Shown: positions 1 through 13,258, numbered from the stretch's first letter. The stretch is 13,258 nt of DNA from Candidatus Rifleibacteriota bacterium (GCA_051747585.1 JBNJGH010000090.1:1-13258); one strand, 5' to 3'. Made by a program: numbers and translations. Notes: generated from the sequence alone by a model not told the origin.

Positions 1-34
1 GCCCTCAGAAAAACACTGGTGTTTTTCTGAGGGC
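1..34. terminator. Perfect 16-bp inverted repeat, probably the intrinsic terminator of a gene upstream of the window
   Basis: GCCCTCAGAAAAACAC (1-16), TG, GTGTTTTTCTGAGGGC (19-34). Only a weak T-tract follows (TTGCTGTT), and the left context is cut by the window edge. Confidence 0.6.
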
Positions 35-271: not shown

Positions 272-1114
272 ATGAGCATACTTGAGCAAACATCAGCAAT
301 TGAAATAAATAATACCAGAATTTCATATTCGGTATCGGGCAAAGGCGAAACAATATTGTTTCTCCATGGGAACCCCGGTAGTCGAAAAGACTTTACATCC
401 GTATGTGAAAAAGTGGCAGAAAAAGGCTTTAAATGTATTTTTCTCGACCGACCCGGTCATATGAACAGCGAAGAAATCATTTATGAAGAACCAGATCCCT
501 GGTATGAAACCGAGCTTTATTCGCGTTTGATTGACAGACTTGCAGACGAAAAAACCTGGATAGTCGGCTATTCTTTGGGATGTTTTACTGCTGCCAAAAT
601 TGCCATTAAATACCCCGAAAAGGTCAAGGGACTTGTTTTTCTTGCTCCTTATTTGACTCCCGACAACAAAAATGAAAAACCTTCAAGCATTCCGGAGCTT
701 GCCAAGGGTGCAATACTGGGAACCCTGCTGGGAGTAATGCTGCCAGCCTTGTCGCAAAATAAAATGGAAAAGCATCTTGAAAAAGTTTACGCTCCCGATC
801 GTTTGCCAGATAGTTATCTTGAAACCTGGTTGCCGAGATATACCAGATTTGAGTCTCTTCTGGCTACTATGAACGACAAAAACATGATGCTCGAAATATT
901 AGATGAAGTGCACGGCAAGCTAAGCGAAATTAAATGCCCGGTAATGGTTCTGGCCGGCAAAGAAGACAAGGTTTGCTCCAGCGAAAATCAGCTTGAGCTT
1001 GTTAAAGAAAAAATTAAAAATGCAAAAATTAAGATTCTAGAAGACGCTGGGCATGGGCTGCCTTTGGTTCATCCTTCAGAGTCTGCGGAGTTTGTAATTG
1101 AGTCGATAAAATAA
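272..1114 (+). CDS. Alpha/beta-fold hydrolase (Ser-Asp-His triad), substrate unknown
   Basis: Oxyanion motif FLHGNPGS, DRPGH, nucleophile elbow GYSLG, acid in AGKEDKV, His in AGHGL. No signal peptide. Confidence 0.9.
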   Translation: MSILEQTSAIEINNTRISYSVSGKGETILFLHGNPGSRKDFTSVCEKVAEKGFKCIFLDRPGHMNSEEIIYEEPDPWYETELYSRLIDRLADEKTWIVGYSLGCFTAAKIAIKYPEKVKGLVFLAPYLTPDNKNEKPSSIPELAKGAILGTLLGVMLPALSQNKMEKHLEKVYAPDRLPDSYLETWLPRYTRFESLLATMNDKNMMLEILDEVHGKLSEIKCPVMVLAGKEDKVCSSENQLELVKEKIKNAKIKILEDAGHGLPLVHPSESAEFVIESIK

Positions 1115-1145: not shown

Positions 1146-2222
1146 ATGTCCAGTTTTCTTAAACCTTATATTCAATATCAAAAGCCACAGGTAAATATGT
1201 TGATTGCGCTTTGCTTTCCATTACTTGGCGCAATTTATAATTTTGGCTGGCGCGCTGCAGTTTATACTCTGGTAGCTATGTTTTGTTGCTGGCTTACCGA
1301 GTATCTGTTCACTCGTCGCGACAACAAGCCTGCCTCTGCAGCAGCTCTTGTTACCGGAATGTTACTTGCTCTGATAAGCCCGCCGAATGTGCCTTTCTGG
1401 CAAATCACCGTTGGTAGTATTTTCTGCATTGTTTTTGCTAAAATGGCCTTTGGGGGGTTCGGTAAAAATATATTCAATCCTGCCATGGTTGGGCGTTGTT
1501 TTTTATATATTAGTTTTCCCGCAGCCCTTGCTGCTACCTGGTATGCTCCCTTTCAAGGTGGTTTGGCAGGCTTTGCCAAATATACGCCTGATCCGGTAGT
1601 CGCCCGTACGGCTGATGTTGAATCAAGCATTTTCAACATAGATGCCATAACAAGCGCTACCACTCTGTCTTCAGTCAAAAAGCTACATTCATATTACCGT
1701 CAGGCCTTAAAAGATGATGATAAAGAGGCTGCGAAAAAAGCGCTGGATTCTTTTAACAGTATATCTCCGGGGCGGCTTGCCATCGGTAATATTAACGGCT
1801 CCATGGGAGAAACAAGTGTGATTCTGATCGTGATTGGCCTTATCTGGCTTCTTTATAATAAGGTCATTTTTATACCCCTTCTTGTTGGCCCTTTTATCGG
1901 CCTGCTGATTGCCAAGATTTTTCTAATTGCTGCCGGGCTGGACTTTTTTCCTTTAACGCAAAGCCTTTTAATTAATATTTTTGCGGGAGGAATGGTATTT
2001 GCCGCAACTTTTATGATTACTGAGCCTATTTCTGCTCCGACCAACAACAAGGCACGCTGGATATATGCCGGGTTAATCGGCTTTTTAGCAACCATAATCA
2101 GAAGTCTTTCGGTTTTTAATGCGGGCTTTATGTTTGCCATTCTTCTCGGAAACACTTTTGGTCCCTTGATAGAAATCGGCATAAAAGGATGGGAAGCGCG
2201 GGCAAAGGAGAAAGCGGCATGA
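1146..2222 (+). CDS. nqrB: NqrB/RnfD-family membrane subunit (covalent FMN, riboflavin)
   Basis: Polytopic membrane protein with ALVTGMLLALISPP, KMAFGGFGKNIFNPAMVGR, flavinylation-type motif DAITSAT(T172), GSMGETS, FMITEPISAP and FAILLGNTFGPLIE. RBS GAGGA before the ATG. Confidence 0.9.
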   Translation: MSSFLKPYIQYQKPQVNMLIALCFPLLGAIYNFGWRAAVYTLVAMFCCWLTEYLFTRRDNKPASAAALVTGMLLALISPPNVPFWQITVGSIFCIVFAKMAFGGFGKNIFNPAMVGRCFLYISFPAALAATWYAPFQGGLAGFAKYTPDPVVARTADVESSIFNIDAITSATTLSSVKKLHSYYRQALKDDDKEAAKKALDSFNSISPGRLAIGNINGSMGETSVILIVIGLIWLLYNKVIFIPLLVGPFIGLLIAKIFLIAAGLDFFPLTQSLLINIFAGGMVFAATFMITEPISAPTNNKARWIYAGLIGFLATIIRSLSVFNAGFMFAILLGNTFGPLIEIGIKGWEARAKEKAA

Positions 2223-2854
2223 TTGATAAAATCAAAACAGTTCTGTTTACTGTTGTTGTAACCGCAGTTTTTGCTTTGCTGGTTAGTGGTGTAAACGCTG
2301 CGCTTCAGGAAACTATAAACAACAACAAAGTTGCGGCCAGGCAAAAAGTAATTCTTTCGCTTTTTGGCTATGCATCTGAGACAGCCAAACTTTCAACTGA
2401 TGATCTTCAGGTTTTTTACAAAAAAAATGTAGATAACCATGAGGCTTTTACAGGCAAAAGCCTTCAAGGGTTCAAACTTAAAAGTTCTGACAAAGATATA
2501 GTAGTCTGTTCTTTTTCCGGGCAGGGCTTCTGGGATGTAATAAAAGGCTTTATTGCAATCGCTCCCAGGGCTCAGGTAATTAAAGGAATCGAGTTTACCC
2601 AGCATGGTGAGACTCCGGGACTTGGTGGTCGTATAAGCGAACCTCAGTTTAAAGCAAGGTTCGCCGACAAGCCAATACCGGCACCTGATAGCGAGGGCGT
2701 GAGGCTTGATTTTGTTCCGGAAGGCTCTGCAGACAAACCCAGAGAGATAGACGGCATTACCGGCGCTACCGGAACCACCTCTGCTCTGGAAACCATAATT
2801 AACAAATCAGTAAATCAGATTTTAACAACGCTTGAAAGGGGGGCTGAAAATTGA
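2219..2854 (+). CDS. nqrC: NqrC/RnfG-family membrane-anchored FMN-binding subunit (start revised from 2189 to 2219)
   Basis: ATG 2219 overlaps the nqrB stop (ATGA), with AAGGAG upstream. One N-terminal TM helix, GQGFWDVIKG, HGETPGLGGRI and flavinylation motif DGITGAT(T184). Confidence 0.88.
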   Translation: MIDKIKTVLFTVVVTAVFALLVSGVNAALQETINNNKVAARQKVILSLFGYASETAKLSTDDLQVFYKKNVDNHEAFTGKSLQGFKLKSSDKDIVVCSFSGQGFWDVIKGFIAIAPRAQVIKGIEFTQHGETPGLGGRISEPQFKARFADKPIPAPDSEGVRLDFVPEGSADKPREIDGITGATGTTSALETIINKSVNQILTTLERGAEN

Positions 2855-3474
2855 GTCCAGCCAATGGCCCTGTTAAGGGAACGGCCGCTTTCAAAAGAAT
2901 GATCTGGGAACAAAACCCGATTATAGGCCAGATTCTAGGAATTTGTTCTGCTCTTGCGGTTACCAATCTGGTTAAGAATACCCTGGTAATGTGTATTGGG
3001 CTGATTTTTACTCTAATGATGTCCTGCCTTACCGTTTCCTTGTTGAGAAACGCAATCCCCCGGCGGGTTAGAATGATTATTCAGGTTCTGATAATAGCGG
3101 CTTATGTAATAATTCTTAAAATTTTTCTAGACGCATATCTTCCGGAAATCAGCAATCAATTAGGGCCTTATGTAGGTCTTATTATTACCAACTGTATTGT
3201 TATGGGAAGAACCGAAGGCTATGCTATGGCTAATAAACCCTGGGACGCCGTTTTAGACGGTCTGGGGGGCGGCATCGGTTATTCAATGGTTCTTCTCCCG
3301 ATTGCAATGGTTAGAGAGCCTCTTGGGCTTGGCAGCTTTTTTGGAATCGAAATTATTCCCCGGGATTGGACCAAATGGAATTTAATGGTAATTGCCCCCA
3401 GCGGGTTCTTTGGTCTGGCAACCTATATATGGATTGCCCGCTCTATTAATAAATCGAACCGGGGGGGTAAATAA
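2851..3474 (+). CDS. nqrD: NqrD/RnfE-family membrane subunit
   Basis: TTG start overlapping the nqrC stop (TTGA), G-rich RBS. QILGICSALAVT, IPRRVRMIIQVLII and YVGLIITNCIVMGR carry both conserved Cys of the intramembrane Fe-S site. Confidence 0.92.
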   Translation: MSPANGPVKGTAAFKRMIWEQNPIIGQILGICSALAVTNLVKNTLVMCIGLIFTLMMSCLTVSLLRNAIPRRVRMIIQVLIIAAYVIILKIFLDAYLPEISNQLGPYVGLIITNCIVMGRTEGYAMANKPWDAVLDGLGGGIGYSMVLLPIAMVREPLGLGSFFGIEIIPRDWTKWNLMVIAPSGFFGLATYIWIARSINKSNRGGK

Positions 3475-4073
3475 TGGATATTCAAAGTATTAACCCCTTT
3501 ATTATATTTTTTGCAGCAATTACTACCAACAATATTCTTTTAACCAATTTTCTGGGAATGTGTTCTTATCTGGCTGTTTCCAAAGATCTTAAAAGCTCAA
3601 TCGGGCTAGGTGGTGCGGTTATTTTTGTTCTGACATGCACTGCCCCGTTAAACTGGCTGGTTTACTATAAATTGCTGGTACCCAACGAACTCGAATATCT
3701 GCAGTACATTGCTTTCATAATTGTAATTGCAGCATTCGTTCAGATAATAGAAATGATTATTGAGCGGGTCAGCACGGCGCTTTATTTGACTCTTGGCATA
3801 TTTTTGCCCTTGATAACCGTTAACTGCGCCATACTTGGAACATCACTTTTTCTGATAATCAGACAATATACCTTTTTACAGACAATTGCTTACGGTCTTG
3901 GTTCCGGAGTGGGCTGGGCCCTGGCAATAGCTGCCCTTGCCGGCATAAGAGTGAAAATGGAAAAAAGATCGAAGGTTCCACCCGAAATCGAAGGTGCCGG
4001 CATAGCTTTGATTATAACCGGAATTATGGCTATGGCATTTATCGGCTTTTCAGGAATTGTAAGAATTAACTGA
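3474..4073 (+). CDS. nqrE: NqrE/RnfA-family membrane subunit
   Basis: TAATG coupling with nqrD. FLGMCSYLAVSK, LGIFLPLITVNCAILG, GSGVGWALAI and ITGIMAMAFIGFSGI. Confidence 0.92.
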   Translation: MDIQSINPFIIFFAAITTNNILLTNFLGMCSYLAVSKDLKSSIGLGGAVIFVLTCTAPLNWLVYYKLLVPNELEYLQYIAFIIVIAAFVQIIEMIIERVSTALYLTLGIFLPLITVNCAILGTSLFLIIRQYTFLQTIAYGLGSGVGWALAIAALAGIRVKMEKRSKVPPEIEGAGIALIITGIMAMAFIGFSGIVRIN

Positions 4074-4086
4074 CACAGGGAATAAA

Positions 4087-5187
4087 ATGAATCAGATATT
4101 GACTGCAACTATTGTTTTAAGTGCTTTAAGCGGTGCTTTAACTGTTTTATTACTCATTGCCGAGTATTTTTTTGCTACCTATGGCGAATGTACTATTGAT
4201 GTCAACGACAAAGAAAAAGAATTCAAAGTTGAAGGTGGGGCCAGCCTTTTATCGACCCTGGCAGGCGAAAAGCTTTTTCTGCCTTCCGGTTGCGGCGGAC
4301 GTGGCAGCTGCGGAACATGCAAATGTAAGGTGCTCGATGGCGCTGGCCCGCTTTTGCCAACCGAAACACCTTATTTGAACGACGAAGAAATAAAAAATAA
4401 TGTTCGGCTTTCATGTCAGGTTAAGGTCAAAAATGATATAAAAATTGAAGTCCCCGATGAACTTTTAAGTATCAAGGAATTTGAGACCACAGTCGAAAAA
4501 ATCGAAGATTTGACTCATGATATCAAAGGGCTTCGCTTTAAGCTTTCTGAAAATGAAAAAATGAAGTTTAAAGCCGGCCAATACGTCAATTTGTTTAACA
4601 AGCCTTATGACGATGTCAAAGAAAGCACGTCCAGGGCATACTCAATAAGTTCACCTCCCTCTGATAAGGAAGCCATCGAGCTTGTAATTCGCTATGTACC
4701 CAACGGAATTTTAACAACCTATGTTTTTAATCATCTTAAAGAAGGCGATAAGGCTCGCTTGATCGGTCCATTCGGCGAATTTTATCTGCGCGATAGCGAT
4801 CGTGAAATTGTCTGTATTGCCGGCGGATCCGGTCTTGCCCCTATAAGAAGTATTATTTATGATATGATTGATCGTAAAATTAATAATCGCAAAACAACCT
4901 TCTTTTTTGGCGCAGTGACAACCAAAGACCTTTATTATGTAGAAGAATTTAAAAAACTGGAAGAGCAACACGACTGGTTTTCTTTTGTTCCGGCTCTTTC
5001 CGGTGATGATTCCGATCATCCTTACAAGAATGGTCTTGTTACCGATGTGGTTGCAGATAATTATGAAAGTCTTGCCGAAGCAGAAGGCTATCTTTGTGGC
5101 AGTCCCGGAATGATTGGTGCCTGCGTTAAGGTTTTGACCGGCAAGGGTATGCCTGAAGAAAGAATCTTTTTCGATAAATTTTCCTAA
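4087..5187 (+). CDS. nqrF: NqrF-like NADH-oxidising subunit (TM anchor, 2Fe-2S, FAD and NAD domains)
   Basis: N-terminal TM helix; 2Fe-2S motif PSGCGGRGSCGTCKC...RLSCQVKV; FKAGQY; FAD motif RAYS; GPFGEF; AGGSGLAP; YLCGSPGM; C-terminal FDKFS. Confidence 0.9.
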   Translation: MNQILTATIVLSALSGALTVLLLIAEYFFATYGECTIDVNDKEKEFKVEGGASLLSTLAGEKLFLPSGCGGRGSCGTCKCKVLDGAGPLLPTETPYLNDEEIKNNVRLSCQVKVKNDIKIEVPDELLSIKEFETTVEKIEDLTHDIKGLRFKLSENEKMKFKAGQYVNLFNKPYDDVKESTSRAYSISSPPSDKEAIELVIRYVPNGILTTYVFNHLKEGDKARLIGPFGEFYLRDSDREIVCIAGGSGLAPIRSIIYDMIDRKINNRKTTFFFGAVTTKDLYYVEEFKKLEEQHDWFSFVPALSGDDSDHPYKNGLVTDVVADNYESLAEAEGYLCGSPGMIGACVKVLTGKGMPEERIFFDKFS

Positions 5188-5205
5188 GAAAGGGGCTAGT
5201 AGAAC

Positions 5206-5661
5206 GTGAAACAGACCCCAGAACTCGATTGTATTCAGAGTAAGATGAAGGCGGGGGAACTTACACTTAAAGGTTTCCTTGGAAACGATGATCGAAAGCT
5301 GGCAGATATTCTTGCCGAAGATCAGAGAACTTTGCACCAGCTTGGTATAAGTGTCGATGTTATTTGCGACAAACTTCAAGACCTTACTGAAAAGGGTCGT
5401 GACTTAATGGAACAGGAAGTTAAAGTAGAAGACCGCTATTTAATAAAGGTTCGCGATGATCGCGGAAAAATACCAAGTCCCTGGGGAGACGGCCTTTTTG
5501 AAAAAGGCGACGTTGAATTAACCGATATTGAAAGTGGTAAAAAGCTGAAATGGAACCAGCTTACTCTCAGGCTGGCGCGTGCGCACGGCTTTTTCGGCGG
5601 ATACGGCAGCGAATACAGGCTTGATCCAAAAGAAGTTACCGAAATTCTTGAGCTAACCTGA
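5206..5661 (+). CDS. Uncharacterised soluble protein, last gene of the nqr-like operon
   Basis: GTG start with AAGGGG RBS, 18 bp after nqrF. 151 aa, charged, no TM segment. Motif-like segments GFLGND, RGKIPSPWGDG and HGFFGGYGSEYRLDP. Confidence 0.8.
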   Translation: MKQTPELDCIQSKMKAGELTLKGFLGNDDRKLADILAEDQRTLHQLGISVDVICDKLQDLTEKGRDLMEQEVKVEDRYLIKVRDDRGKIPSPWGDGLFEKGDVELTDIESGKKLKWNQLTLRLARAHGFFGGYGSEYRLDPKEVTEILELT

Positions 5662-5688: not shown

Positions 5689-5722
5689 AAAAGCCTTCTG
5701 TTATTAATAACAGAAGGCTTTT
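5689..5722. terminator. Bidirectional intrinsic terminator (perfect 34-bp palindrome)
   Basis: AAAAGCCTTCTGTTATT|AATAACAGAAGGCTTTT lies between convergent stops at 5661 and 5747, with an A-tract on the left and a T-tract on the right. Confidence 0.88.
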
Positions 5723-5746: not shown

Positions 5747-6643
5747 TTAAAAGTCAGAAATTCTTTCTACGAAGTCTGGTCTGTCAATAAAAGGATTTCG
5801 GTTGTGTTGGAAATTTTCGACTCGATCGTTTCTTGCTTTTTCAAGTTCGTCGACCGGATCGTTTTTATGCCATTCACGCAGCACTTTTTCCTGCCTGTCG
5901 CCAATATCCATGTTGTATCTGATTGAGAAGTAAAACATAGCTCTGGCAGTGTTTCCACGCTGAACCGGTCTAACTTCGAAAGTTCTATAGTCGGTGCAGC
6001 TTCCGCCTTTTGACCATTTTGGATTTGAAACATAACCGAAGGGGTTGTTGCCTCTGCGGCCATTTGTTTTTGAATCAGTTGGGAAAAGATGGTGCAGGTC
6101 ACTTTTTGCTATTCCTGAAGCTCCGAGAGACTGGGGCCAGGTATGCTCAATGTTCATATTCGAAGCATTGGGCTCGGTATTAGTTTGAAGTTTTCGTCCA
6201 GTATAGACGCATTCAACCCAACCGTCATAGTTGTCTAATTCTATGAATACCAGATCCTGGGCTCTTTGGTAGCCAACTGAAATATGATCTCTAACAATAT
6301 TGAGTAAAGCAGATTTTAAGCGCTCATCTTTCAGATTCTGACAGGGGTCATACAGATCGGAACCTTTTTCAAAATCAACCGAAACAAGGTTGCCGTTTTG
6401 ATCTACCGGGTCGGTTAGTTTGCCGCCGGTAACATGCGAGTATAACTCGGTGATCGAGGCACGTAACCTGAAAATCTGACTTTGAGCTTTTGGAGTTGTG
6501 TGTTCCAGCTCCTCTAGCTCGCGCATTAAATGCTTGTAAAGCTGTTCTGGAGTTCTAGCTGAAGTGTTGCCTGCGTATGCAGCCGTGTAAACAAATAAAC
6601 AACAAAAGACTACTGCTAGAAACTTGAAAGTACGTTTAGACAT
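5747..6643 (-). CDS. Secreted endonuclease I-family (Bsn/EndA-like, His-Me) nuclease (start revised from 6685 to 6643)
   Basis: ATG 6643 is preceded by GAAAGGGG. Sec signal MSKRTFKFLAVVFCCLFVYTAAYA. Motifs ECVYTG, NIEHTWPQS, SDLHHLFPTD..TNGRRGNNPFG, RGNTARAMFYFSIRY, WHKNDPVD and QHNRNPFID. Confidence 0.9.
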   Translation of the reverse strand: MSKRTFKFLAVVFCCLFVYTAAYAGNTSARTPEQLYKHLMRELEELEHTTPKAQSQIFRLRASITELYSHVTGGKLTDPVDQNGNLVSVDFEKGSDLYDPCQNLKDERLKSALLNIVRDHISVGYQRAQDLVFIELDNYDGWVECVYTGRKLQTNTEPNASNMNIEHTWPQSLGASGIAKSDLHHLFPTDSKTNGRRGNNPFGYVSNPKWSKGGSCTDYRTFEVRPVQRGNTARAMFYFSIRYNMDIGDRQEKVLREWHKNDPVDELEKARNDRVENFQHNRNPFIDRPDFVERISDF

Positions 6644-6801
6644 ACTTACCCCTTTCTCATACTCTATACTTATACAGGGTATCAAAATTATTTTGTACTG
6701 CTCCTGATTAAAGACTACACATTAATTATTACAAAAAATAACCATTTCCACAAGGGTAACCCCCAAAAAATGCTATTTTTTTTCTAATATTTTAAAGCTG
6801 A

Positions 6802-6842: not shown

Positions 6843-9701
6843 TTAAAATAGACTCATCTGATTTCTTTCAGGCAATATGCGGTCGAGTATCAAACCCATG
6901 AGCTTGTTACGTGCTTCAGTATCCGCTGCCGCTTCAAGCCTGAAACCAAGATAAACACCGGTATATCGTTTGCCTGAGCGTGATTTGTCAGACACTACAA
7001 TTCCCGCACCTCTTCCATCAGGCATGGTAATCATAAATTTCCCGGGATGACCGACTTTCATTATGGTTACATCAGAAGCCGTTTTTGCTGCGCCATCACC
7101 GTTAAGAACGATGTTAAATTTCTTGTCACCATCTTTGCAGACCAATTCGTCAAAATCTTTTTCATCGTCTACATAGGTGAACTTGAAGTATTTCTTCAGC
7201 AGATCACGGTGTATGTTGGACTGCTCAAAAGATTGAGCCGCAATCATCAGGCGTCCGCCATTATTGAGGTAATCCATCAGATCGTCGGAACTGGGTGACA
7301 GCTGTCCAAGACTGTTGGTGCTAACACTGTCAGTAATAACTGCGCCGGTTTTGGCAAATTTACGCAGAATGTCTTTGAATTTGAATCCAAATACCGATGG
7401 ATCCCATAATACCTGAAATTTAACATTGTTGGCTTTTAAAGCTTGAGCTATAACCGGTATTGTCATTGGATCCTGTACCATTTGTCCGCAAATGAGCACG
7501 TCAGCTTCTTTTTGAAATTCCGGTGTTGTTTCAAGAAATTCATCCCATTGTGTGTCACGGGCGAATTTCATTGCTTTGTAGCCGGTAGTGAATTTATAGG
7601 AAGGTGAATAGTAAATTGAAAGTCCGCGACTATCGCCCATGCCCTGAGTATGGCCTTCTATGACCATTGGTGAATTCTTTGGAAAATCAGAAACAATCAG
7701 ATATTCTTTAGATTGTTTAGCTCTTCTTTTATCGAGAATCTTTCCATCTTTTCTGATAATTTGATAGTTTATTTCGTCTACAAATACTCTTTTTTCAAGG
7801 GCTTCATCAATTACGGGCTTGAATGGACCGATTTTACAATAATATCCGCCACTGCGAAGTTTGCGCAGCGGTGTCATGGCTTTTCTTGACTGGAATATTT
7901 TTGTTCCTGCGGGCCAGAGTTCTCGTGGGGGCGTTCGCCAGCCATTGTAGCCCCAGACCACAACTCCTGGTTTTTCATGGGTTATCATTAAAGGTTCAGC
8001 AAGCTTGTCGTCTTTAACCGGATAACCAATTGTTTTTATTATATCGATACAGATTCCACGTATATCAGAAGGTGCGTCGGGCATACCGGCAAGCTTTATG
8101 GCGAAGTCGGTCAGATCAACAAGAGTTTCATCTGAATACCTTCTAACTGAACCAAACTTACCTGTTTCACTGATTAAAAGTTTTGCATAGACTTCGTGAT
8201 TATCGAGCAGAGCTCGTGCCAGGCTGTCGAATTTTTTTACCAGAGCGGGAATTTTGCTCAGATCTACTGCTGCTTTAGTTACCGGGGAACCCTGTATTAC
8301 ATGACTTGTGGCCGAACCACCTTTGGCATAAGAGTAAACATAGGTGCCAACCATTCTTTTGGTGAATTCTCGCGGAGAAAGCTTGGGGTTTCTTACCAGG
8401 GGCTCGAGGTAATCGGCATAAGGCATTCCCTGGCCTGGCTCGTTTTCTTCTGAAGCGACCATAAATTTCGAGCTGTCGGCGATTTCGTAGGCTACTTCTA
8501 TTGTGCCCATCAGACAGGCGTCAAAGTCAACAATATCAAACTTAGATGCTTTTTTGTTTACTTTTGATAAAGTTTTCTGGCCCTGGCGAAGTGCCCAGGC
8601 TACGTCCTGGACTCGCATGTATTCATGAGATTCCTGATCGTGAGCAATACCGGCCCAGCCCATACCATGATTCCATATAACTACGGCAACATTGTTTGCC
8701 GGATAGGTTTTTACACCCCACTGAAGAAAATCAGCCAGGGTTTTCTTGTTACCCATATTGGTTTCGCCAAGGTTCATAACCATCGGGCTCGTAATTTTGC
8801 TTTTTGTGTTGTCTCTTTTAATATAATATCTTCTGGTTCCAGTCCAGTTTCCATCCGCGATTGTGCTTCCCTGGCCACCATGAAGTCTGTCAATCTGAGC
8901 TACAATATTTACATCTTTGCTACTGCCAACTTCTTCCATTTCGTTGATATCTTGAAGGCCAAAGCGCTCAAGATCGTTGTCGGCACAGACGTAAACCAGA
9001 ACTGTCCATTTCTTTCTTTTCTTGGGACCCGGGGCTTCGGGATTGTTGCCTTCGGTAACAAATGCGACCGAGTGTTGCGCATCGTCATACCAGTGAATCG
9101 GGAATTCTTTAGGCCCGACATCGGCATACATTTGGGCTACAGCGTTGTATCGGTCTTTGTTCGCGTTTTGACGCATTTTGCCGTAAACGGTTTCCCAGTA
9201 TTTGCTTATTTTTGCCAGGTCTTTCTTGCCATTTGCGACCTGAAATTTTCTTCTATCGTGAACTTTTTTAACCAGATCATAAAAAGCAAGGTCCAAAGGG
9301 AACTTAGACTGTTTTAAAACTGCTCCCAATACACTGTCACAGGCAGGATTGTTTTTGAATTTTTTGAAGGCTTTATCTGAAACTTCGTCTGATTTTGCCG
9401 CATAATTGGCAAAAAACATTGCTTTGTAGTCGCCGCGAATGTTGTTGATGAAGTTTCTTTGCAGCTTTTTGGGAAAATCAGCAATGACCTGAGCAAAATA
9501 AGACTCGGTTTTTTTATCACCAAGATATTCCAGGGTGATTTTGCGGGTCCAAACTTCCTGGAGCATCGACAAATCTTGAATAAGTGCTTTCTGGTCAGCT
9601 TGGCTGAGCTTTTTTCCTGTAGCTGCTGTTGTACTTGTGAGCGGGCTGATTGCTATTAGCAGAGCCAGAATTAATATTGCCGGCAGAAACCGCTTTCTCA
9701 T
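6843..9701 (-). CDS. Secreted multidomain clostripain-family (peptidase C11) cysteine protease
   Basis: Signal peptide MRKRFLPAILILALLIAI and AAGGAG RBS. C11 motifs WTVLVYVCADNDLE, DINEMEEVGS, IWNHGMGW (His345), DFDACLMGTIEV (Cys396), VASEENEPG, RGLSIYY and TQWDEFL. Confidence 0.9.
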   Translation of the reverse strand: MRKRFLPAILILALLIAISPLTSTTAATGKKLSQADQKALIQDLSMLQEVWTRKITLEYLGDKKTESYFAQVIADFPKKLQRNFINNIRGDYKAMFFANYAAKSDEVSDKAFKKFKNNPACDSVLGAVLKQSKFPLDLAFYDLVKKVHDRRKFQVANGKKDLAKISKYWETVYGKMRQNANKDRYNAVAQMYADVGPKEFPIHWYDDAQHSVAFVTEGNNPEAPGPKKRKKWTVLVYVCADNDLERFGLQDINEMEEVGSSKDVNIVAQIDRLHGGQGSTIADGNWTGTRRYYIKRDNTKSKITSPMVMNLGETNMGNKKTLADFLQWGVKTYPANNVAVVIWNHGMGWAGIAHDQESHEYMRVQDVAWALRQGQKTLSKVNKKASKFDIVDFDACLMGTIEVAYEIADSSKFMVASEENEPGQGMPYADYLEPLVRNPKLSPREFTKRMVGTYVYSYAKGGSATSHVIQGSPVTKAAVDLSKIPALVKKFDSLARALLDNHEVYAKLLISETGKFGSVRRYSDETLVDLTDFAIKLAGMPDAPSDIRGICIDIIKTIGYPVKDDKLAEPLMITHEKPGVVVWGYNGWRTPPRELWPAGTKIFQSRKAMTPLRKLRSGGYYCKIGPFKPVIDEALEKRVFVDEINYQIIRKDGKILDKRRAKQSKEYLIVSDFPKNSPMVIEGHTQGMGDSRGLSIYYSPSYKFTTGYKAMKFARDTQWDEFLETTPEFQKEADVLICGQMVQDPMTIPVIAQALKANNVKFQVLWDPSVFGFKFKDILRKFAKTGAVITDSVSTNSLGQLSPSSDDLMDYLNNGGRLMIAAQSFEQSNIHRDLLKKYFKFTYVDDEKDFDELVCKDGDKKFNIVLNGDGAAKTASDVTIMKVGHPGKFMITMPDGRGAGIVVSDKSRSGKRYTGVYLGFRLEAAADTEARNKLMGLILDRILPERNQMSLF

Positions 9702-10187: not shown

Positions 10188-11345
10188 ATGAATCTTGTTT
10201 ACCTTTCACCACATTATCCGGCTCACTTTTCACAATTCGTCGAAAGTTTAGCGAAATATGGAGTTAAAGTTCTGGGAATTTCTGATTTGCCCGACGAAGC
10301 ACTTGGCGGCAATTTAAGATCTTGTCTGGCCGGCCATTATAAAGTCAGTCATATCGAGAACCGGGATGAAGTAATTAGAGCCTGCTACTTTTTTCGTGAC
10401 AATCATGGTTCAATCGACAGGGTTGAGTCACACCTCGAACCCTGGATCGAAATGGAAGCAGAAATCCGAGAAGAATTTAACGTTACAGGACCAAAACCCG
10501 ATGATCTTCAGTTTTTGAAACGTAAGTCAAAAATGAAGGATATTTTTACAAAAGCAGGGGTTCCTGTTGCCAAAGGTACCTTGGTAAAAGATATTGACCA
10601 GTGTCTTGATTTTATAAATAAAAATTATCCGGTATTTATAAAACCCGACATCGGAGTCGGAGCAGCAGACACTTACACAATACATAACCGCAAGGATCTT
10701 GAAGATTTTTTCAAGATTCGTCAATCCTACAATTATTTTATGGAAGAATATGTAAGCGGCGATATTGAATCTTTTGATGGCTTAACTGATAAAGATGGCA
10801 ATATAGTATTTTATACATCACATATTTTCAGTAATGACATACATAACCTGGTAAAAAATAACGAAAATGTCTGGTATTACTCGGTTAAAAAAATTCCGGC
10901 AGACCTCGAAAAATTTGGCAGAGAAGTTGTTAAGGCTGCTGGTATTAAAGAAAAGTTTTTCCATATTGAGTTTTTCCGTCTCTCAGATGGTTCATTAAAG
11001 GCTCTCGAAATAAATATGAGACCCCCGGGAGGCCTATCTACCCACATGTTCAATTACGCCTGTGATGTAGATGTCTATGACTGGTGGGCTTCTATAATTG
11101 CAGACAAAGATCCGCGCAGAAATTTTAAACGAACTTATCATTGTGGATTTGTTGGAAGAAAGCATGACCGACCTTATGAGCTTTCCCACGACGAGCTCTA
11201 CCAGAAATGGGGCGAAAAAATTGTTCATAGCCAGCCTATGAACCCGATAGAATATACGGTTATGGGTCATTGGGGCTATCTTCCCCGCACAAAAGACGAA
11301 AAAGAAATGCGTAAAATAATCGATGATATTGTGAGGGAAGCCTGA
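10188..11345 (+). CDS. ATP-grasp domain protein (putative carboxylate-amine ligase)
   Basis: KSKMKDIF, YPVFIKPDIGVGA, YFMEEYVSG, SFDGL, FFHIEFF and ALEINMRPPGG (ExNxR metal/ATP motif). Confidence 0.88.
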   Translation: MNLVYLSPHYPAHFSQFVESLAKYGVKVLGISDLPDEALGGNLRSCLAGHYKVSHIENRDEVIRACYFFRDNHGSIDRVESHLEPWIEMEAEIREEFNVTGPKPDDLQFLKRKSKMKDIFTKAGVPVAKGTLVKDIDQCLDFINKNYPVFIKPDIGVGAADTYTIHNRKDLEDFFKIRQSYNYFMEEYVSGDIESFDGLTDKDGNIVFYTSHIFSNDIHNLVKNNENVWYYSVKKIPADLEKFGREVVKAAGIKEKFFHIEFFRLSDGSLKALEINMRPPGGLSTHMFNYACDVDVYDWWASIIADKDPRRNFKRTYHCGFVGRKHDRPYELSHDELYQKWGEKIVHSQPMNPIEYTVMGHWGYLPRTKDEKEMRKIIDDIVREA

Positions 11346-12151
11346 TGAAAAGAGAATACAGAAAAGTAGACAGCCAGGCTGTGGGGCGCCCTATGGAAAT
11401 GCTGGTTTATGGTGAAAAAGGTAAACCTATGATGGTTTTTCCGTCGCAGGAAGGCAGATTTTTCGATTTTGAAAATTTTGGCATGATCGAGCCGATTGCC
11501 CCTTTTATAGAAGAAGGTAAAATTCAATTATACGCGGTTGACAGTATCGATCACGAAAGCTGGTTTTCAAGCGCCTCGCCAGAACAAAGGGCGCGGCGAG
11601 CTAACGATTATGACCATGCAATAGTAAATGATATTGTTCCGCATATACTTGAAGATGGGCATAAAGGTGCGGGAATAATCTTACATGGCTGTAGCTTTGG
11701 CGCTTTCCATGCAGTGAATTTTTATTTGCGACACCCGGAAGTTTTCGATTTGAGCGTAGCTTTGAGTGGTTGTTACGATATAGGCTTTACCATGGATGGT
11801 TTTTTTAATGATGATGTTTATTTCAATAACCCGATCATGTATTCAGAAGGCTTGAATCAGCCTGAAATAGTTAAGAAACTGCAGAAGAATCTTTTGATCG
11901 TATGCAGCGGTCAGGGGGCCTGGGAAGAATGGATAGACGAAGCAAGAACGCTTTGTAAAAACCTGCATGATAATGACATTCCGGTACTGCTTGATTTATG
12001 GGGCTTCGATGTTAATCATGACTGGCCATGGTGGAGAAAGATGATTGTTTACTTTCTTGGTAAATTTGACAGAGCAGGTTTCTTAAAGAGTAAGCACAGG
12101 CTTACGGCAAAAGAGAACAAAAAGTTTCTTAAAAACTTTCACTCAATTTAA
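11345..12151 (+). CDS. Putative esterase (alpha/beta fold)
   Basis: TGATG coupling to the ATP-grasp gene. YGEKGKPMMVFPSQEG, nucleophile GCSFGAFHA, ALSGCYD, GQGAWE and His motif WGFDVNHDWPWW. Confidence 0.88.
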   Translation: MKREYRKVDSQAVGRPMEMLVYGEKGKPMMVFPSQEGRFFDFENFGMIEPIAPFIEEGKIQLYAVDSIDHESWFSSASPEQRARRANDYDHAIVNDIVPHILEDGHKGAGIILHGCSFGAFHAVNFYLRHPEVFDLSVALSGCYDIGFTMDGFFNDDVYFNNPIMYSEGLNQPEIVKKLQKNLLIVCSGQGAWEEWIDEARTLCKNLHDNDIPVLLDLWGFDVNHDWPWWRKMIVYFLGKFDRAGFLKSKHRLTAKENKKFLKNFHSI

Positions 12152-12194: not shown

Positions 12195-13258
12195 ATGAAC
12201 TCAAAATTACAGCCGGCAAAAAGAATTCTTGATTTGCCGCCTTATCTTTTCAAAGATATTGATGATAAAAAAGACGCTTTGGCAGAACGGGGTATTAGTC
12301 TGCTTAATTTTGGAGTTGGCGATCCTGACATACCAACTCCCGATTTTATAGTTGAAGAGCTCTGTAAACAGAGCAGATTGAACAACATGCAGAAGTATCC
12401 CGCTTATAATGGTAGCGCTGATTTTCGCCGGGCAGTTGCTGATTATATGTACAATAGATTCGGCGTTAAGTTTGACCCTGTCGTTGAAGTTACCTCTTTA
12501 ATAGGTTCAAAAGAAGGGTTGGCTCATTTTTCCTGGGCTTTTCTCGAAGAGGGGGATATCGCACTGATTCCGGATCCCGGCTTTCCCATGTATGCCAGTA
12601 CAGCAAAATTCTCAGGGGCTGAGGTTTATTACATGCCGCTCCTGGCCGAGAATAATTTCGTTCCTGTTTTATCTGAAATTCCTGAAGAAATTGCCATAAA
12701 AAGTAAACTTATGGTTTTGAATTATCCCCATAATCCAAGTGGGGCTGTTGCAACCCGCCAACAACTCCAGGAAATTGTCGACTGGTGCCTTAAATATCAG
12801 ATTATTATAGTCGCCGATGCGGCTTATGCCGAAATTGTCTTTAATGAAGAAGACAGAATGAGTATTTTCAATGTTCCGGGCGCAGAAAAAATTGCTATCG
12901 AGCTTCATTCGTTCAGTAAAACTTTTAATATGACCGGCTGGCGCCTTGGTTTTGCGGTTGGTCACAAAGACCTTGTCGATGGGCTTGTGCAAATGAAACT
13001 TAATGTTGATTCCGGTGTTTTTGATGCCATTCAGTATGCCGGCATCAAAGGACTGGAGCACTTGCCAGAAGTCGCACAAGAGCAGGTAAAGATTTATAAA
13101 GAACGTCTTGAAGCTTTGAAGGTGGTTCTTGAAAAGACCGGGCTGGAATATTTCGAGCCTGCAGGTTCATTTTTCGTTCTGGTAAAATGCCCCGAAGGTA
13201 GAACTTCAATGGAATTTACCATGGAATTGATGGATAAATGTGGAGTGGTAACTACTCC
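12195..13258 (+). CDS. dapL: PLP-dependent class I/II aminotransferase, LL-diaminopimelate aminotransferase-like (3'-truncated by the window end)
   Basis: Translated by hand: MNSKLQPAKRILDLPPYLFKDIDDKK...NFGVGDPDIPTP...LIGSKEGLAHF...PDPGFPMY...LNYPHNPSGAVA...DAAYAEI...ELHSFSKTFNMTGWRLGFAVG (PLP Lys). AAAGGA RBS upstream. Absent from the ORF track because there is no stop in the window. DapL specificity is inferred. Confidence 0.8.
   Translation, partial: MNSKLQPAKRILDLPPYLFKDIDDKKDALAERGISLLNFGVGDPDIPTPDFIVEELCKQSRLNNMQKYPAYNGSADFRRAVADYMYNRFGVKFDPVVEVTSLIGSKEGLAHFSWAFLEEGDIALIPDPGFPMYASTAKFSGAEVYYMPLLAENNFVPVLSEIPEEIAIKSKLMVLNYPHNPSGAVATRQQLQEIVDWCLKYQIIIVADAAYAEIVFNEEDRMSIFNVPGAEKIAIELHSFSKTFNMTGWRLGFAVGHKDLVDGLVQMKLNVDSGVFDAIQYAGIKGLEHLPEVAQEQVKIYKERLEALKVVLEKTGLEYFEPAGSFFVLVKCPEGRTSMEFTMELMDKCGVVTT

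Follow-up and report, generated by a model that had tools for sequence, protein, structure and literature searches.

An NqrA-less, six-gene operon of the Rnf/Nqr family in a Rifleibacteriota bacterium, tentatively read as an ion-pumping NAD(P)H:rubredoxin oxidoreductase

We tentatively propose that six genes of a Candidatus Rifleibacteriota bacterium represent a third lineage within the Rnf/Nqr family and that their products would form an ion-pumping NAD(P)H:rubredoxin oxidoreductase instead of a quinone-reducing complex, the acceptor being suggested by gene context. The six open reading frames, B, C, D, E, F and X, occupy positions 1146-5661 of the window (the whole stretch of 13,258 nucleotides that was analysed), all on the plus strand and free of internal stops (Table 1). 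An earlier note on this DNA had described five genes in nqr order, and reading frames and junctions are as it described them, with ATGA, TTGA and TAATG joining B to E and a gap of 13 bp between E and F; a further 18 bp separate F from X. It was also right that neither nqrA nor rnfC precedes B and that rnfB is missing from the locus: the upstream neighbour is an alpha/beta hydrolase gene, possibly co-transcribed with the operon, which is lineage-specific and stands outside the conserved system, being kept in close relatives and missing upstream of B in loci L013, L047, L048 and L059. The hairpin behind X (-20.6 kcal/mol, z -5.45, none of 200 shuffles equally good) is likely the terminator closing the operon and is not in the list from a consensus terminator scan. 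No site stood out in a promoter scan (23 sites, 13.8 expected). A single RNA run (share 0.06) yielded four short contigs of at least 99% identity, scattered over the hydrolase gene, D, F and the endonuclease gene, for which a DNA origin is possible, and gives no evidence of transcription. Viral contigs were searched for relatives of B and contained none.

Table 1. Genes and other features of the operon region, in window coordinates
Feature	Coordinates	Strand	Description
alpha/beta hydrolase	272..1114	+	PF00561; ends 31 bp before B
B	1146..2222	+	RnfD/NqrB-family membrane subunit, 358 aa
C	2219..2854	+	NqrC/RnfG-family FMN-binding subunit, 211 aa; PF04205; TGAT motif with Thr184
D	2851..3474	+	NqrD/RnfE-family membrane subunit, 207 aa, TTG start; [2Fe-2S] Cys32/Cys115; Asp136 (= NqrD D133)
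E	3474..4073	+	NqrE/RnfA-family membrane subunit, 199 aa; [2Fe-2S] Cys30/Cys118; Glu93 (= NqrE E95)
F	4087..5187	+	membrane-anchored [2Fe-2S]/FAD/NAD(P)H reductase, 366 aa; without the two inserts of canonical NqrF
X	5206..5661	+	conserved sixth gene, 151 aa, GTG start; no Pfam/NCBIfam match; predicted F binder
hairpin with U-rich tails on both strands	5689..5722	.	between X and convergent endonuclease gene

The cofactor motifs had been called intact, and the ligands could indeed be located in B, C, D, E and F; together with the missing NqrA, RnfC and RnfB they support the idea of an NADH module and a membrane wire without the usual terminal partner. The core cofactor ligands of Na+-NQR are present, namely the two FMN threonines (T172 in B, T184 in C), the four D/E cysteines and the riboflavin Asn/Asp pair, which B keeps as Asn111 and Glu293, the latter at the D346 position. 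All 45 X-type rows retain the FMN Thr, the riboflavin Asn and an acidic residue at the D346 position, as well as the four D/E cysteines, NqrE E95 and NqrD D133. F carries NqrF-type [2Fe-2S] (cysteines 69, 75, 78 and 110), FAD and NADH sites (FAD and NAD motifs at 183, 246 and 337) and a membrane anchor, and reaches 285 bits with TIGR01941 (cut-off 295), while C reaches 97 bits with TIGR01938 (cut-off 144). All subunits score below the Nqr HMM cut-offs; D, E and C score best with Nqr models.

The first gene had been named nqrB and does belong to the NqrB/RnfD family, but its product is RnfD-sized and not a full NqrB: TIGR01946 (rnfD) matches with 203 bits over residues 16-347, and NqrB HMMs align only from model position 125-126. 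The structural model of B (pLDDT 86.2) matches NqrB and RnfD chains in fold, with a best target-normalised TM-score of 0.78 to the RnfD chain D of 7ZC6. About 14 residues stand ahead of the first helix, against 55-58 in the three NqrB rows measured (seven in the B of Ilyobacter), and the N-terminal amphipathic quinone helices AH-I and AH-II of NqrB are missing. The quinone site, which the earlier note had put near the NqrA/NqrB interface, is described as lying in these N-terminal helices of NqrB (PMC10643135, PMC12174285), so that the telling loss sits in B itself, beyond that of NqrA. Any residue other than Gly at NqrB position 141 is described as blocking quinone (PMC10643135); Trp49 takes this position in B and Gly is found there in none of the 45 X-type rows, but Gly141 is not a strict NQR marker, since it occurs in three of four NQR reference rows and Prevotella NqrB has Leu. 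The N-terminal arm of RnfD, in turn, is buried in RnfC (PMC9588780; for the role of the arm see also PMC11889175). B lacks this SSPH arm and has instead a conserved, family-specific Gln motif (Gln12 here), found in 42 of the 45 X-type rows. Judged from these residues, X-type B has lost both the quinone pocket and the RnfC arm, yet keeps its flavins.

The earlier note had recorded 'one ORF' beside nqrBCDEF without dwelling on it; this ORF is a conserved sixth gene of the operon and encodes a candidate subunit. Of 68 informative metagenome loci, which outside the phylum are no unbiased B-side sample of X-type operons, 65 have X directly behind the NqrF-like gene; X is found in 20 of the 22 phylum genomes that hold the operon and in the same operon of the cultured Ilyobacter polytropus DSM 2926 (ILYOP_RS10220-10195). 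B-E are kept in 42 of 48 loci with readable layout, and six loci, from at least three origins, retain only F and X. X as a substitute for NqrA on B is disfavoured because it stays with F at these six loci. Neither Pfam nor NCBIfam matched X, Foldseek gave no E below 0.001, PDB sequences a best E of 0.15 and a fold search by VIA a best Z of 3.6 (rmsd 3.4, 60 aligned), and DUF7919 matched weakly in one X homolog and on 13% of one Atlas cluster; these null results do not prove a new fold. The F-X complex prediction places X in the nucleotide cleft of F with a score of 0.74 against 0.00 for the best control, a mark that 116 of 157 solved pairs, 2 of 215 mismatched pairs and 7 of 44 blind neighbour pairs attain, the model having been built without FAD or NAD and from our own alignments, and this calibration being only roughly valid for it. 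Between runs, 80% or more of the contacts recur, with a partner pLDDT of 90-91, the interface at residues 175-178 and 204-208 falls where canonical NqrF carries its two inserts, and the invariant Lys100 and the conserved Arg86 of X come to lie at the cleft. X is thus predicted to clamp onto the NADH-oxidising subunit as a lid. Cys91 (46/55), His122 (53/55) and His127 (55/55) of the X homologs are suggestive of a metal site, which is not essential in the X studied here, since Ser91 and Arg122 stand there.

The acceptor is suggested by the neighbourhood of related operons. A rubredoxin gene lies at most 150 bp behind X in 7 of 78 loci, is fused to X in one of the 78 and directly precedes B in two further loci; seven of these ten rubredoxin-adjacent loci sit in one subclade, so that few independent events are represented. 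Among 29 scanned matches, X fusions with rubredoxin, rubrerythrin, peroxiredoxin-like and nitroreductase domains were found. FprA, SOR, rubrerythrin, Tpx or rubredoxin genes occur in 14 of 35 non-redundant loci of at least 9 kb, compared with 1.3% of random 9.5-kb windows of the host genome, a control from a single genome with few oxygen-defence genes. The other 21 long loci contain no oxygen-defence gene, and none was found in the window or in the close relatives L010, L013 and L049. In C. ultunense, the rubrerythrin gene CUESP_0386 is reported near nqrBCDEF (PMC5924567).

F, whose motifs are in place, would oxidise NAD(P)H at FAD and pass electrons to its own [2Fe-2S] cluster, as NqrF does. 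X is predicted to cover the FAD/NAD cleft at its adenosine ends and to fill the space of the canonical NqrF inserts; a role in flavin retention or in the choice between NADH and NADPH is a guess. From there electrons would pass via the D/E [2Fe-2S] cluster to the FMN of C, the FMN of B and the riboflavin of B, a path whose ligands are seen and whose order is taken from NQR and Rnf structures, and Na+ or H+ would be pumped along it. The cytoplasmic face of the riboflavin, free of NqrA, RnfC and a quinone pocket, could then serve a small soluble carrier that takes one electron. Rubredoxin, with a potential of about 0 to -60 mV, is the most likely candidate and, judging by gene context, may feed flavodiiron protein, rubrerythrin and superoxide reductase.

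F-X may also reduce rubredoxin directly, without the membrane wire, since the fusion partner of rubredoxin is X, whose predicted place is on F and not on B, and since soluble F-X pairs exist. F-X would in this case itself be the reductase of rubredoxin or a similar carrier, the B-E wire would end at a periplasmic acceptor at the FMN of C or at flavodoxin or O2 at the riboflavin, and defence would be uncoupled from pumping; we regard this as rather unlikely, if the most serious competitor. Anchor-less F-X pairs in five loci of at least three origins, one of them (L094) in a full oxygen-defence island, speak for it, and a rubredoxin at the C-terminus of X (L112, P0164, P0174) would be kept close to F. 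However, the consistently kept FMN Thr and riboflavin residues of B argue for a cytoplasmic return path, most readable loci keep B-E, and electron transfer from NADH to rubredoxin requires no membrane part, which would leave the retention of the wire unexplained.

That the complex is a stripped NADH:quinone pump, using a scavenged naphthoquinone at a remodelled B site, appears improbable. It is conceivable because the host genome holds a MenA-like prenyltransferase gene (contig C37; 100 bits, below cut-offs) and because Prevotella NqrB also lacks G141, and the X-type core is nearer to NQR than to Rnf in the B+D+E tree. Against it, both amphipathic helices that close over the quinone are missing from B, menB, menD, mqn, PF02621 and cytochrome bd gave no match in the host genome, and menD was not over cut-off in five of five operon-bearing genomes.

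The genome search proposed earlier for RnfC and RnfB found neither at the locus, but all of rnfCDGEAB as an operon of its own on contig C97; the RnfB ferredoxin module and the RnfC NAD module are absent from the locus and from 81 related loci. A second RnfC_N match (contig C8), considered as a spare RnfC, was rejected as a permuted RnfC-like gene in a microcompartment cluster, which we take to be PduS-type. B could borrow RnfC from the rnf operon, giving an ion-gradient-driven NADH:NADP+ transhydrogenase with F-X as the NADP(H) end, and a full Rnf coexists in every species of the papers cited here for nqrA-less clusters (PMC4148951, PMC5924567, PMC6256511, PMC9558581). Glucose-6-phosphate dehydrogenase genes flanking four loci, Lys100 and Arg86 of X at the nucleotide cleft, and a sister operon (G002:C3) that includes an RnfC-like gene are in line with this idea. 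Nevertheless, we consider it quite improbable: X-type B lacks the RnfC-anchoring arm motif (PMC9588780), whereas a PH-type arm is retained in the sister operon that contains RnfC, F has no clear NADP signature compared with NqrF, and none of the 81 loci has an RnfC-like gene.

The earlier note had considered a partner encoded elsewhere; for NqrA or RnfC we disfavour this, as the N-terminal arm motif is missing from B. The orphan nqrA named there as the refuting case was searched for in the genome by HMMs and tblastn and not found: PF05896 and TIGR01936 gave no match, and three NqrA proteins matched only the RnfC of the rnf operon. Since the genome is 93.55% complete in 330 contigs, the absence of nqrA is likely rather than proven. 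An NqrM search is uninformative, as it gave no match in the controls either. An ordinary Na+-NQR with its nqrA in the unassembled part, to which this incompleteness and the best scores of D, E and C with Nqr models would lend themselves, is close to refuted, as nqrA is over cut-off in none of the 22 operon-bearing phylum genomes (one of them in two contigs), the six phylum genomes with nqrA over cut-off all represent another family without X, no nqrA-like gene precedes B in 34 loci with at least 1.5 kb of upstream sequence, and the operon forms a separate clade.

In the B+D+E tree (31 rows), X-linked operons stand on one side of a branch with 100/100 support, apart from NQR and Rnf, and the NQR rows form their own 100/100 clade, the references being four NQR and four Rnf rows only. 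The operon thus branches inside neither clade. The analysis supports the earlier suggestion that this may be a complex of its own, with another acceptor. In the F tree, the 28 X-linked rows all fall into one group (97/93). If the rubredoxin reading is true, oxygen detoxification and ion pumping would be coupled in fermenters with neither quinones nor cytochromes taking part, and the evolutionary model that derives NQR from Rnf (PMC4014512) would gain a sister lineage, in which NqrF-type input is combined with several different outputs.

The five-gene layout without nqrA is already published, so the system is not undescribed; the earlier remark that similar clusters occur in some anaerobes holds. 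Such clusters are reported for Thermotoga thermarum (Theth_1137-1141) and T. lettingae in 2014 (PMC4148951) and for Clostridium ultunense (CUESP_0375-0379) in 2018 (PMC5924567), the acceptor being given as unknown in both papers and thus since 2014, and Ca. Izimaplasma ZiA1 (PMC6256511) and Miniphocaeibacter halophilus (PMC9558581) are recorded as having NqrBCDEF or nqrB-F. By published description, these clusters share the order B-C-D-E-F, a genome without nqrA and a coexisting Rnf; the passages devoted to them mention no sixth gene, helix loss in B, separate clade or rubredoxin link. A literature search found no characterisation of NqrA-less nqrBCDEF complexes, and one on Ozemobacter physiology nothing relevant. 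What the present analysis adds is a candidate for a sixth subunit, together with the site at which it is predicted to bind, the outlet losses in B and a candidate acceptor. Na+-NQR (Vibrio cholerae NqrABCDEF; PDB 8A1T, 7XK3) shares with the operon the NqrF-type input, the D/E [2Fe-2S] cluster, the FMN threonines of C and B, the riboflavin residues and the gene order B-F, but differs in having NqrA, AH-I/AH-II and G141 in NqrB, both NqrF inserts and no X, and in its clade. Rnf (RnfCDGEAB; C. tetanomorphum 7ZC6, A. woodii 9ERI, A. vinelandii 8AHX) has the four-subunit core and the size of B in common with it, whereas here F takes the place of RnfB, RnfC is missing from the locus, B lacks the SSPH arm and the genome has a separate Rnf. 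The NQR/RNF-like systems of Meheust et al. (2021, PMC8238504) likewise combine partial Nqr/Rnf parts with NAD(P)H input and ApbE flavinylation, but are defined by an RnfD-NqrF domain fusion and one trans-membrane path, whereas B and F are separate reading frames here and both paths are kept. Soluble aromatic and alkene oxygenase reductases of the BenC and MmoC type, finally, share with F the [2Fe-2S]-FAD-NAD layout without NqrF inserts; F, with no oxygenase genes nearby, differs from them by its N-terminal membrane anchor and its partner X.

The ORFs B to F (nqrBCDEF-like) and X (151 aa) lie on one strand of the window, which is the whole of contig C90 in a genome of 4.14 Mb (93.55% complete); the named records nearest to its proteins belong to Ca. 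Riflebacteria. ORF coordinates and reading of the junctions confirmed the nqr gene order with overlapping junctions reported in the earlier note, and all core ligands of the cofactor motifs were found in B to F, again as claimed there. No subunit reached the cut-offs of the curated Nqr models in the profile search, B scoring best as RnfD, and the domain search of the window ORFs assigned X to no family. The neighbouring genes are ordinary (see table); intergenic repeats resembling the one at the contig start may recur elsewhere in the genome.

Features of the window and of related loci (G000, the window's own genome; other G numbers, compared phylum genomes; C, contigs; L, fetched loci)
Location	Strand	Feature	Remark
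window 1-34		inverted repeat, 15 pairs, perfect	contig start
window 1146-5661	+	B-C-D-E-F-X	B, PF03116; C, PF04205; D and E, PF02508; F, Fer2+FAD_binding_6+NAD_binding_1
window 5689-5722		strong hairpin	3' of operon; z -5.45
window 5747-6685	-	Endonuclease I family gene
window 6843-9701	-	clostripain-family (C11) peptidase
window 10188-12151	+	ATP-grasp plus esterase pair
window 12195-13256	+	LL-diaminopimelate aminotransferase-like gene
G000:C37:12850-13761 (L188)		MenA-like prenyltransferase
G000:C8:43920-49058 (L007)		bacterial microcompartment cluster
G000:C139:1581-3100; G000:C304:2-2199		second NqrA-less set
L055:6823-11811 (G018); L054:6692-11195 (G030)		second NqrA-less set	intact
L050:72-10279 (G002:C3)		RnfC-like gene with B-C-D-E-F
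L058:6443-9413 (G056); L052:5091-8130; L053:7349-10320		RnfD/NqrB-NuoF-like fusion	family f8 genomes
L094:6973-12270		oxygen-defence island with F and X

X is a conserved sixth gene tied to F. Among 67 genomes of the phylum, 20 contain an ortholog of B with at least 56% identity and two (G001, G002) a divergent B of the same clade, giving 22 operon-bearing genomes; X occurs in 20 of the 67, all within these 22, and in the two lacking it a contig end cuts the operon. It lies about 4 kb 3' of B on the same contig in 18 of the 20, the cluster being split across contigs in two. The only match in a plasmid collection, from Ilyobacter polytropus, has exactly the order B-C-D-E-F-X. A metagenome scan with an X-only motif, which covers the core subfamily, gave at least 120 matches, of which 80 were fetched and 68 were informative (X not called in one, no upstream room in 11); an NqrF-like gene stands immediately 5' of X in 65 of these 68 and is absent there in three. 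These 65 loci comprise 42 full operons, groups of nine and eight cut by contig ends, and six with F and X only. The wider X family has 1731 representatives, part of them in long repeat proteins. Long proteins without Pfam match carry two to four X-like domain repeats (P0105, P0152, P0191, P0120), and the X fold is therefore also used outside this operon. Atlas clusters indicate Planctomycetota, Fibrobacterota, Spirochaetota and Cloacimonadota, and named members include Sphaerochaeta. The predicted structure of X is confident (pLDDT 96.8) and found no match among solved folds in fold searches.

X-type operons form their own clade: in a concatenated B+D+E tree (LG+G4, 31 of 57 rows retained), X-type (19 rows), NQR (4) and Rnf (4) are each separated from all other rows by a branch supported at 100/100, the branching order of X-type, NQR and other NqrA-less operons not being fixed by this tree. 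All 28 X-linked F rows likewise group in the F tree (97/93).

Modelling of F (residues 32-366, ligand-free) with X predicts that X sits on the FAD/NAD cleft of F. The complex scored 0.72-0.75 (median 0.74) against 0.00 for three controls; the score mark, which 116 of the 157 solved pairs and 2 of the 215 mismatched ones reached, is calibrated only roughly here because analyst-made alignments were used. At least 80% of contacts agreed between runs, with a partner pLDDT of 90-91. The predicted interface on F (175-178, 183, 204-208, 211, 275-277, 305-306, 317, 319, 338-342, 345) is the rim of the cleft, and in the alignment the inserts of canonical NqrF fall exactly after 175 and before 204, i.e. 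at this interface. Of 44 metagenome F rows in which the first of these loops could be measured, 43 have a loop of 13 residues; it spans 39-44 residues in four NQR rows and 8-11 in four X-less NqrA-less rows, and it contains a Tyr that is invariant in X-linked rows (55/55). On the X side, Gly87 and Lys100 (each 55/55) and Gly23 (52/55) are among the interface residues.

In NQR, two N-terminal helices of NqrB close the quinone pocket and G141 is irreplaceable (PMC10643135, section 10; PMC12174285, section 16), while RnfD of the Rnf complex has its N-terminal arm buried within RnfC (available parts of PMC9588780 and PMC11889175). Judged from its sequence, B has lost both the quinone and the RnfC-docking features: in contrast to NqrB it lacks the two helices, and Gly occupies the G141 position in none of 45 X-type rows (a few of them near-duplicates), although Prevotella NqrB also lacks this Gly; its N-terminus differs from the RnfD arm, being often Lys/Arg-rich with Gln in 42 of 45 rows. 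The earlier note's missing terminal partner stands as far as NqrA, RnfC and RnfB are absent from the locus, but the loss lies also in B itself. In 45/45 rows B retains its FMN Thr, the Asn of the riboflavin site and an acidic residue at the D346 position, and NqrE E95 and NqrD D133, both named as ion-related (PMC7414866), are likewise kept in all 45; therefore, the wire through B to E likely still ends at the riboflavin, with an open face towards the cytoplasm.

Oxygen-defence genes occur in a minority of X-type neighbourhoods. Recurrent neighbours are flavodiiron protein (FprA), desulfoferrodoxin (SOR), rubrerythrin, ferritin, thiol peroxidase (Tpx), a Fur/PerR regulator, glucose-6-phosphate dehydrogenase and rubredoxin; of the 35 non-redundant loci that span at least 9 kb, 14 have one or more of FprA, SOR, rubrerythrin, Tpx and rubredoxin (9/21 at 60% clustering), against 1.3% of random 9.5-kb windows from a single genome, that of the window. 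Rubredoxin follows X within 150 bp in 7 of 78 loci with room, is fused to it in one of the 78 and directly precedes B in two loci, seven of these ten rubredoxin-linked loci falling in one subclade. The same defence genes adjoin X in G001 and G002; none were found at the X operon of the window's own lineage, although elsewhere its genome encodes rubredoxin (C44), superoxide reductase (C7) and thiol peroxidase (C87), together with an FprA-like gene truncated at a contig end (C43). One island (L094) combines rubrerythrin, thiol peroxidase, flavodiiron protein, desulfoferrodoxin and two ferritin-like genes with soluble F and X, without B-E.

Rubredoxin has a potential near 0 to -60 mV. Set against the -320 mV of NADH (available part of PMC5924567), this span would suffice for ion pumping, and we tentatively favour an ion pump with rubredoxin as acceptor. 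The clustering of most rubredoxin-linked loci in one subclade, the single-genome control and the lack of defence genes beside the operon in the window's own lineage speak against it. Somewhat less probable is direct reduction of rubredoxin by F and X, the wire having another outlet; the six F-X-only modules, five with an F missing its membrane anchor, are derived, since they nest within the X-linked F clade at three or more places.

Scavenged quinone is an unlikely acceptor: menB, menD, PF02621 and cytochrome bd gave no match within the genome, which has three UbiA-family genes (one MenA-like below cut-off, one decaprenyl-phosphate phosphoribosyltransferase, one not classified). The MenA-like gene (C37) is flanked by what we take, from sequence motifs, to be pyridine-nucleotide oxidoreductase-like and polyprenyl synthase-like ORFs. 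Marginally less likely still is a borrowed RnfC, which would make the complex a transhydrogenase; a complete rnfCDGEAB operon lies on C97, and NqrA-, RnfC- or RnfB-like genes were seen neither in the fetched loci, 34 of which offer at least 1.5 kb before B, nor in that of Ilyobacter. The microcompartment cluster on C8 contains aldehyde dehydrogenase-like and permuted RnfC-type genes. A hidden nqrA is highly improbable. Its absence from the locus, pointed out earlier, extends to the genome as assembled (93.55% complete), with no match to PF05896 or TIGR01936 and with the RnfC on C97 as sole tblastn match of three NqrA proteins; the orphan nqrA named beforehand as the refuting case was thus sought and not found. 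None of the 22 operon-bearing genomes has nqrA over cut-off; six phylum genomes do, all from another family and all without X. ApbE, which the earlier note had wanted checked, is encoded. What probability remains falls to an acceptor outside those considered.

The NqrA-less nqrBCDEF layout is already known, and the similar clusters that the earlier note mentioned for some anaerobes are indeed in print, as far as the available text of the sources goes: for Thermotoga thermarum and T. lettingae, with the other reactant unknown (PMC4148951), and for Clostridium ultunense, with an acceptor suggested to be more negative than quinone (PMC5924567); NqrBCDEF or nqrB-F is also given in parts of PMC6256511 and PMC9558581. 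The evolutionary study PMC4014512, in its available part, builds on six-subunit operons only, and no discussion of the variant was found in that of a 2025 review (PMC12174285). Literature outside subscription journals yielded no characterisation, sixth gene or rubredoxin link for the NqrA-less operon.

Related arrangements occur in the genomes compared. A second NqrA-less set without X (D/G/E/A-like plus NqrF-like) forms a long branch, its B-like subunit missing the FMN Thr motif in all three rows; in G018 the gene after F encodes a secreted multihaem cytochrome c, and the set may export electrons outward. The L050 operon, in which an RnfC-like gene with two [4Fe-4S] motifs precedes B to F and hdrC/hdrB/hdrA-like genes, is an Rnf-Nqr intermediate with both RnfC-type and NqrF-type NAD modules. 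Fusions of about 790 aa join an RnfD/NqrB domain to a NuoF-like FMN/[4Fe-4S] domain, with a [2Fe-2S]/[4Fe-4S] protein gene 3' of the fusion. Compared with NQR and Rnf, the X-type complex, as read from its genes, would work like a pump of this kind while belonging to neither.
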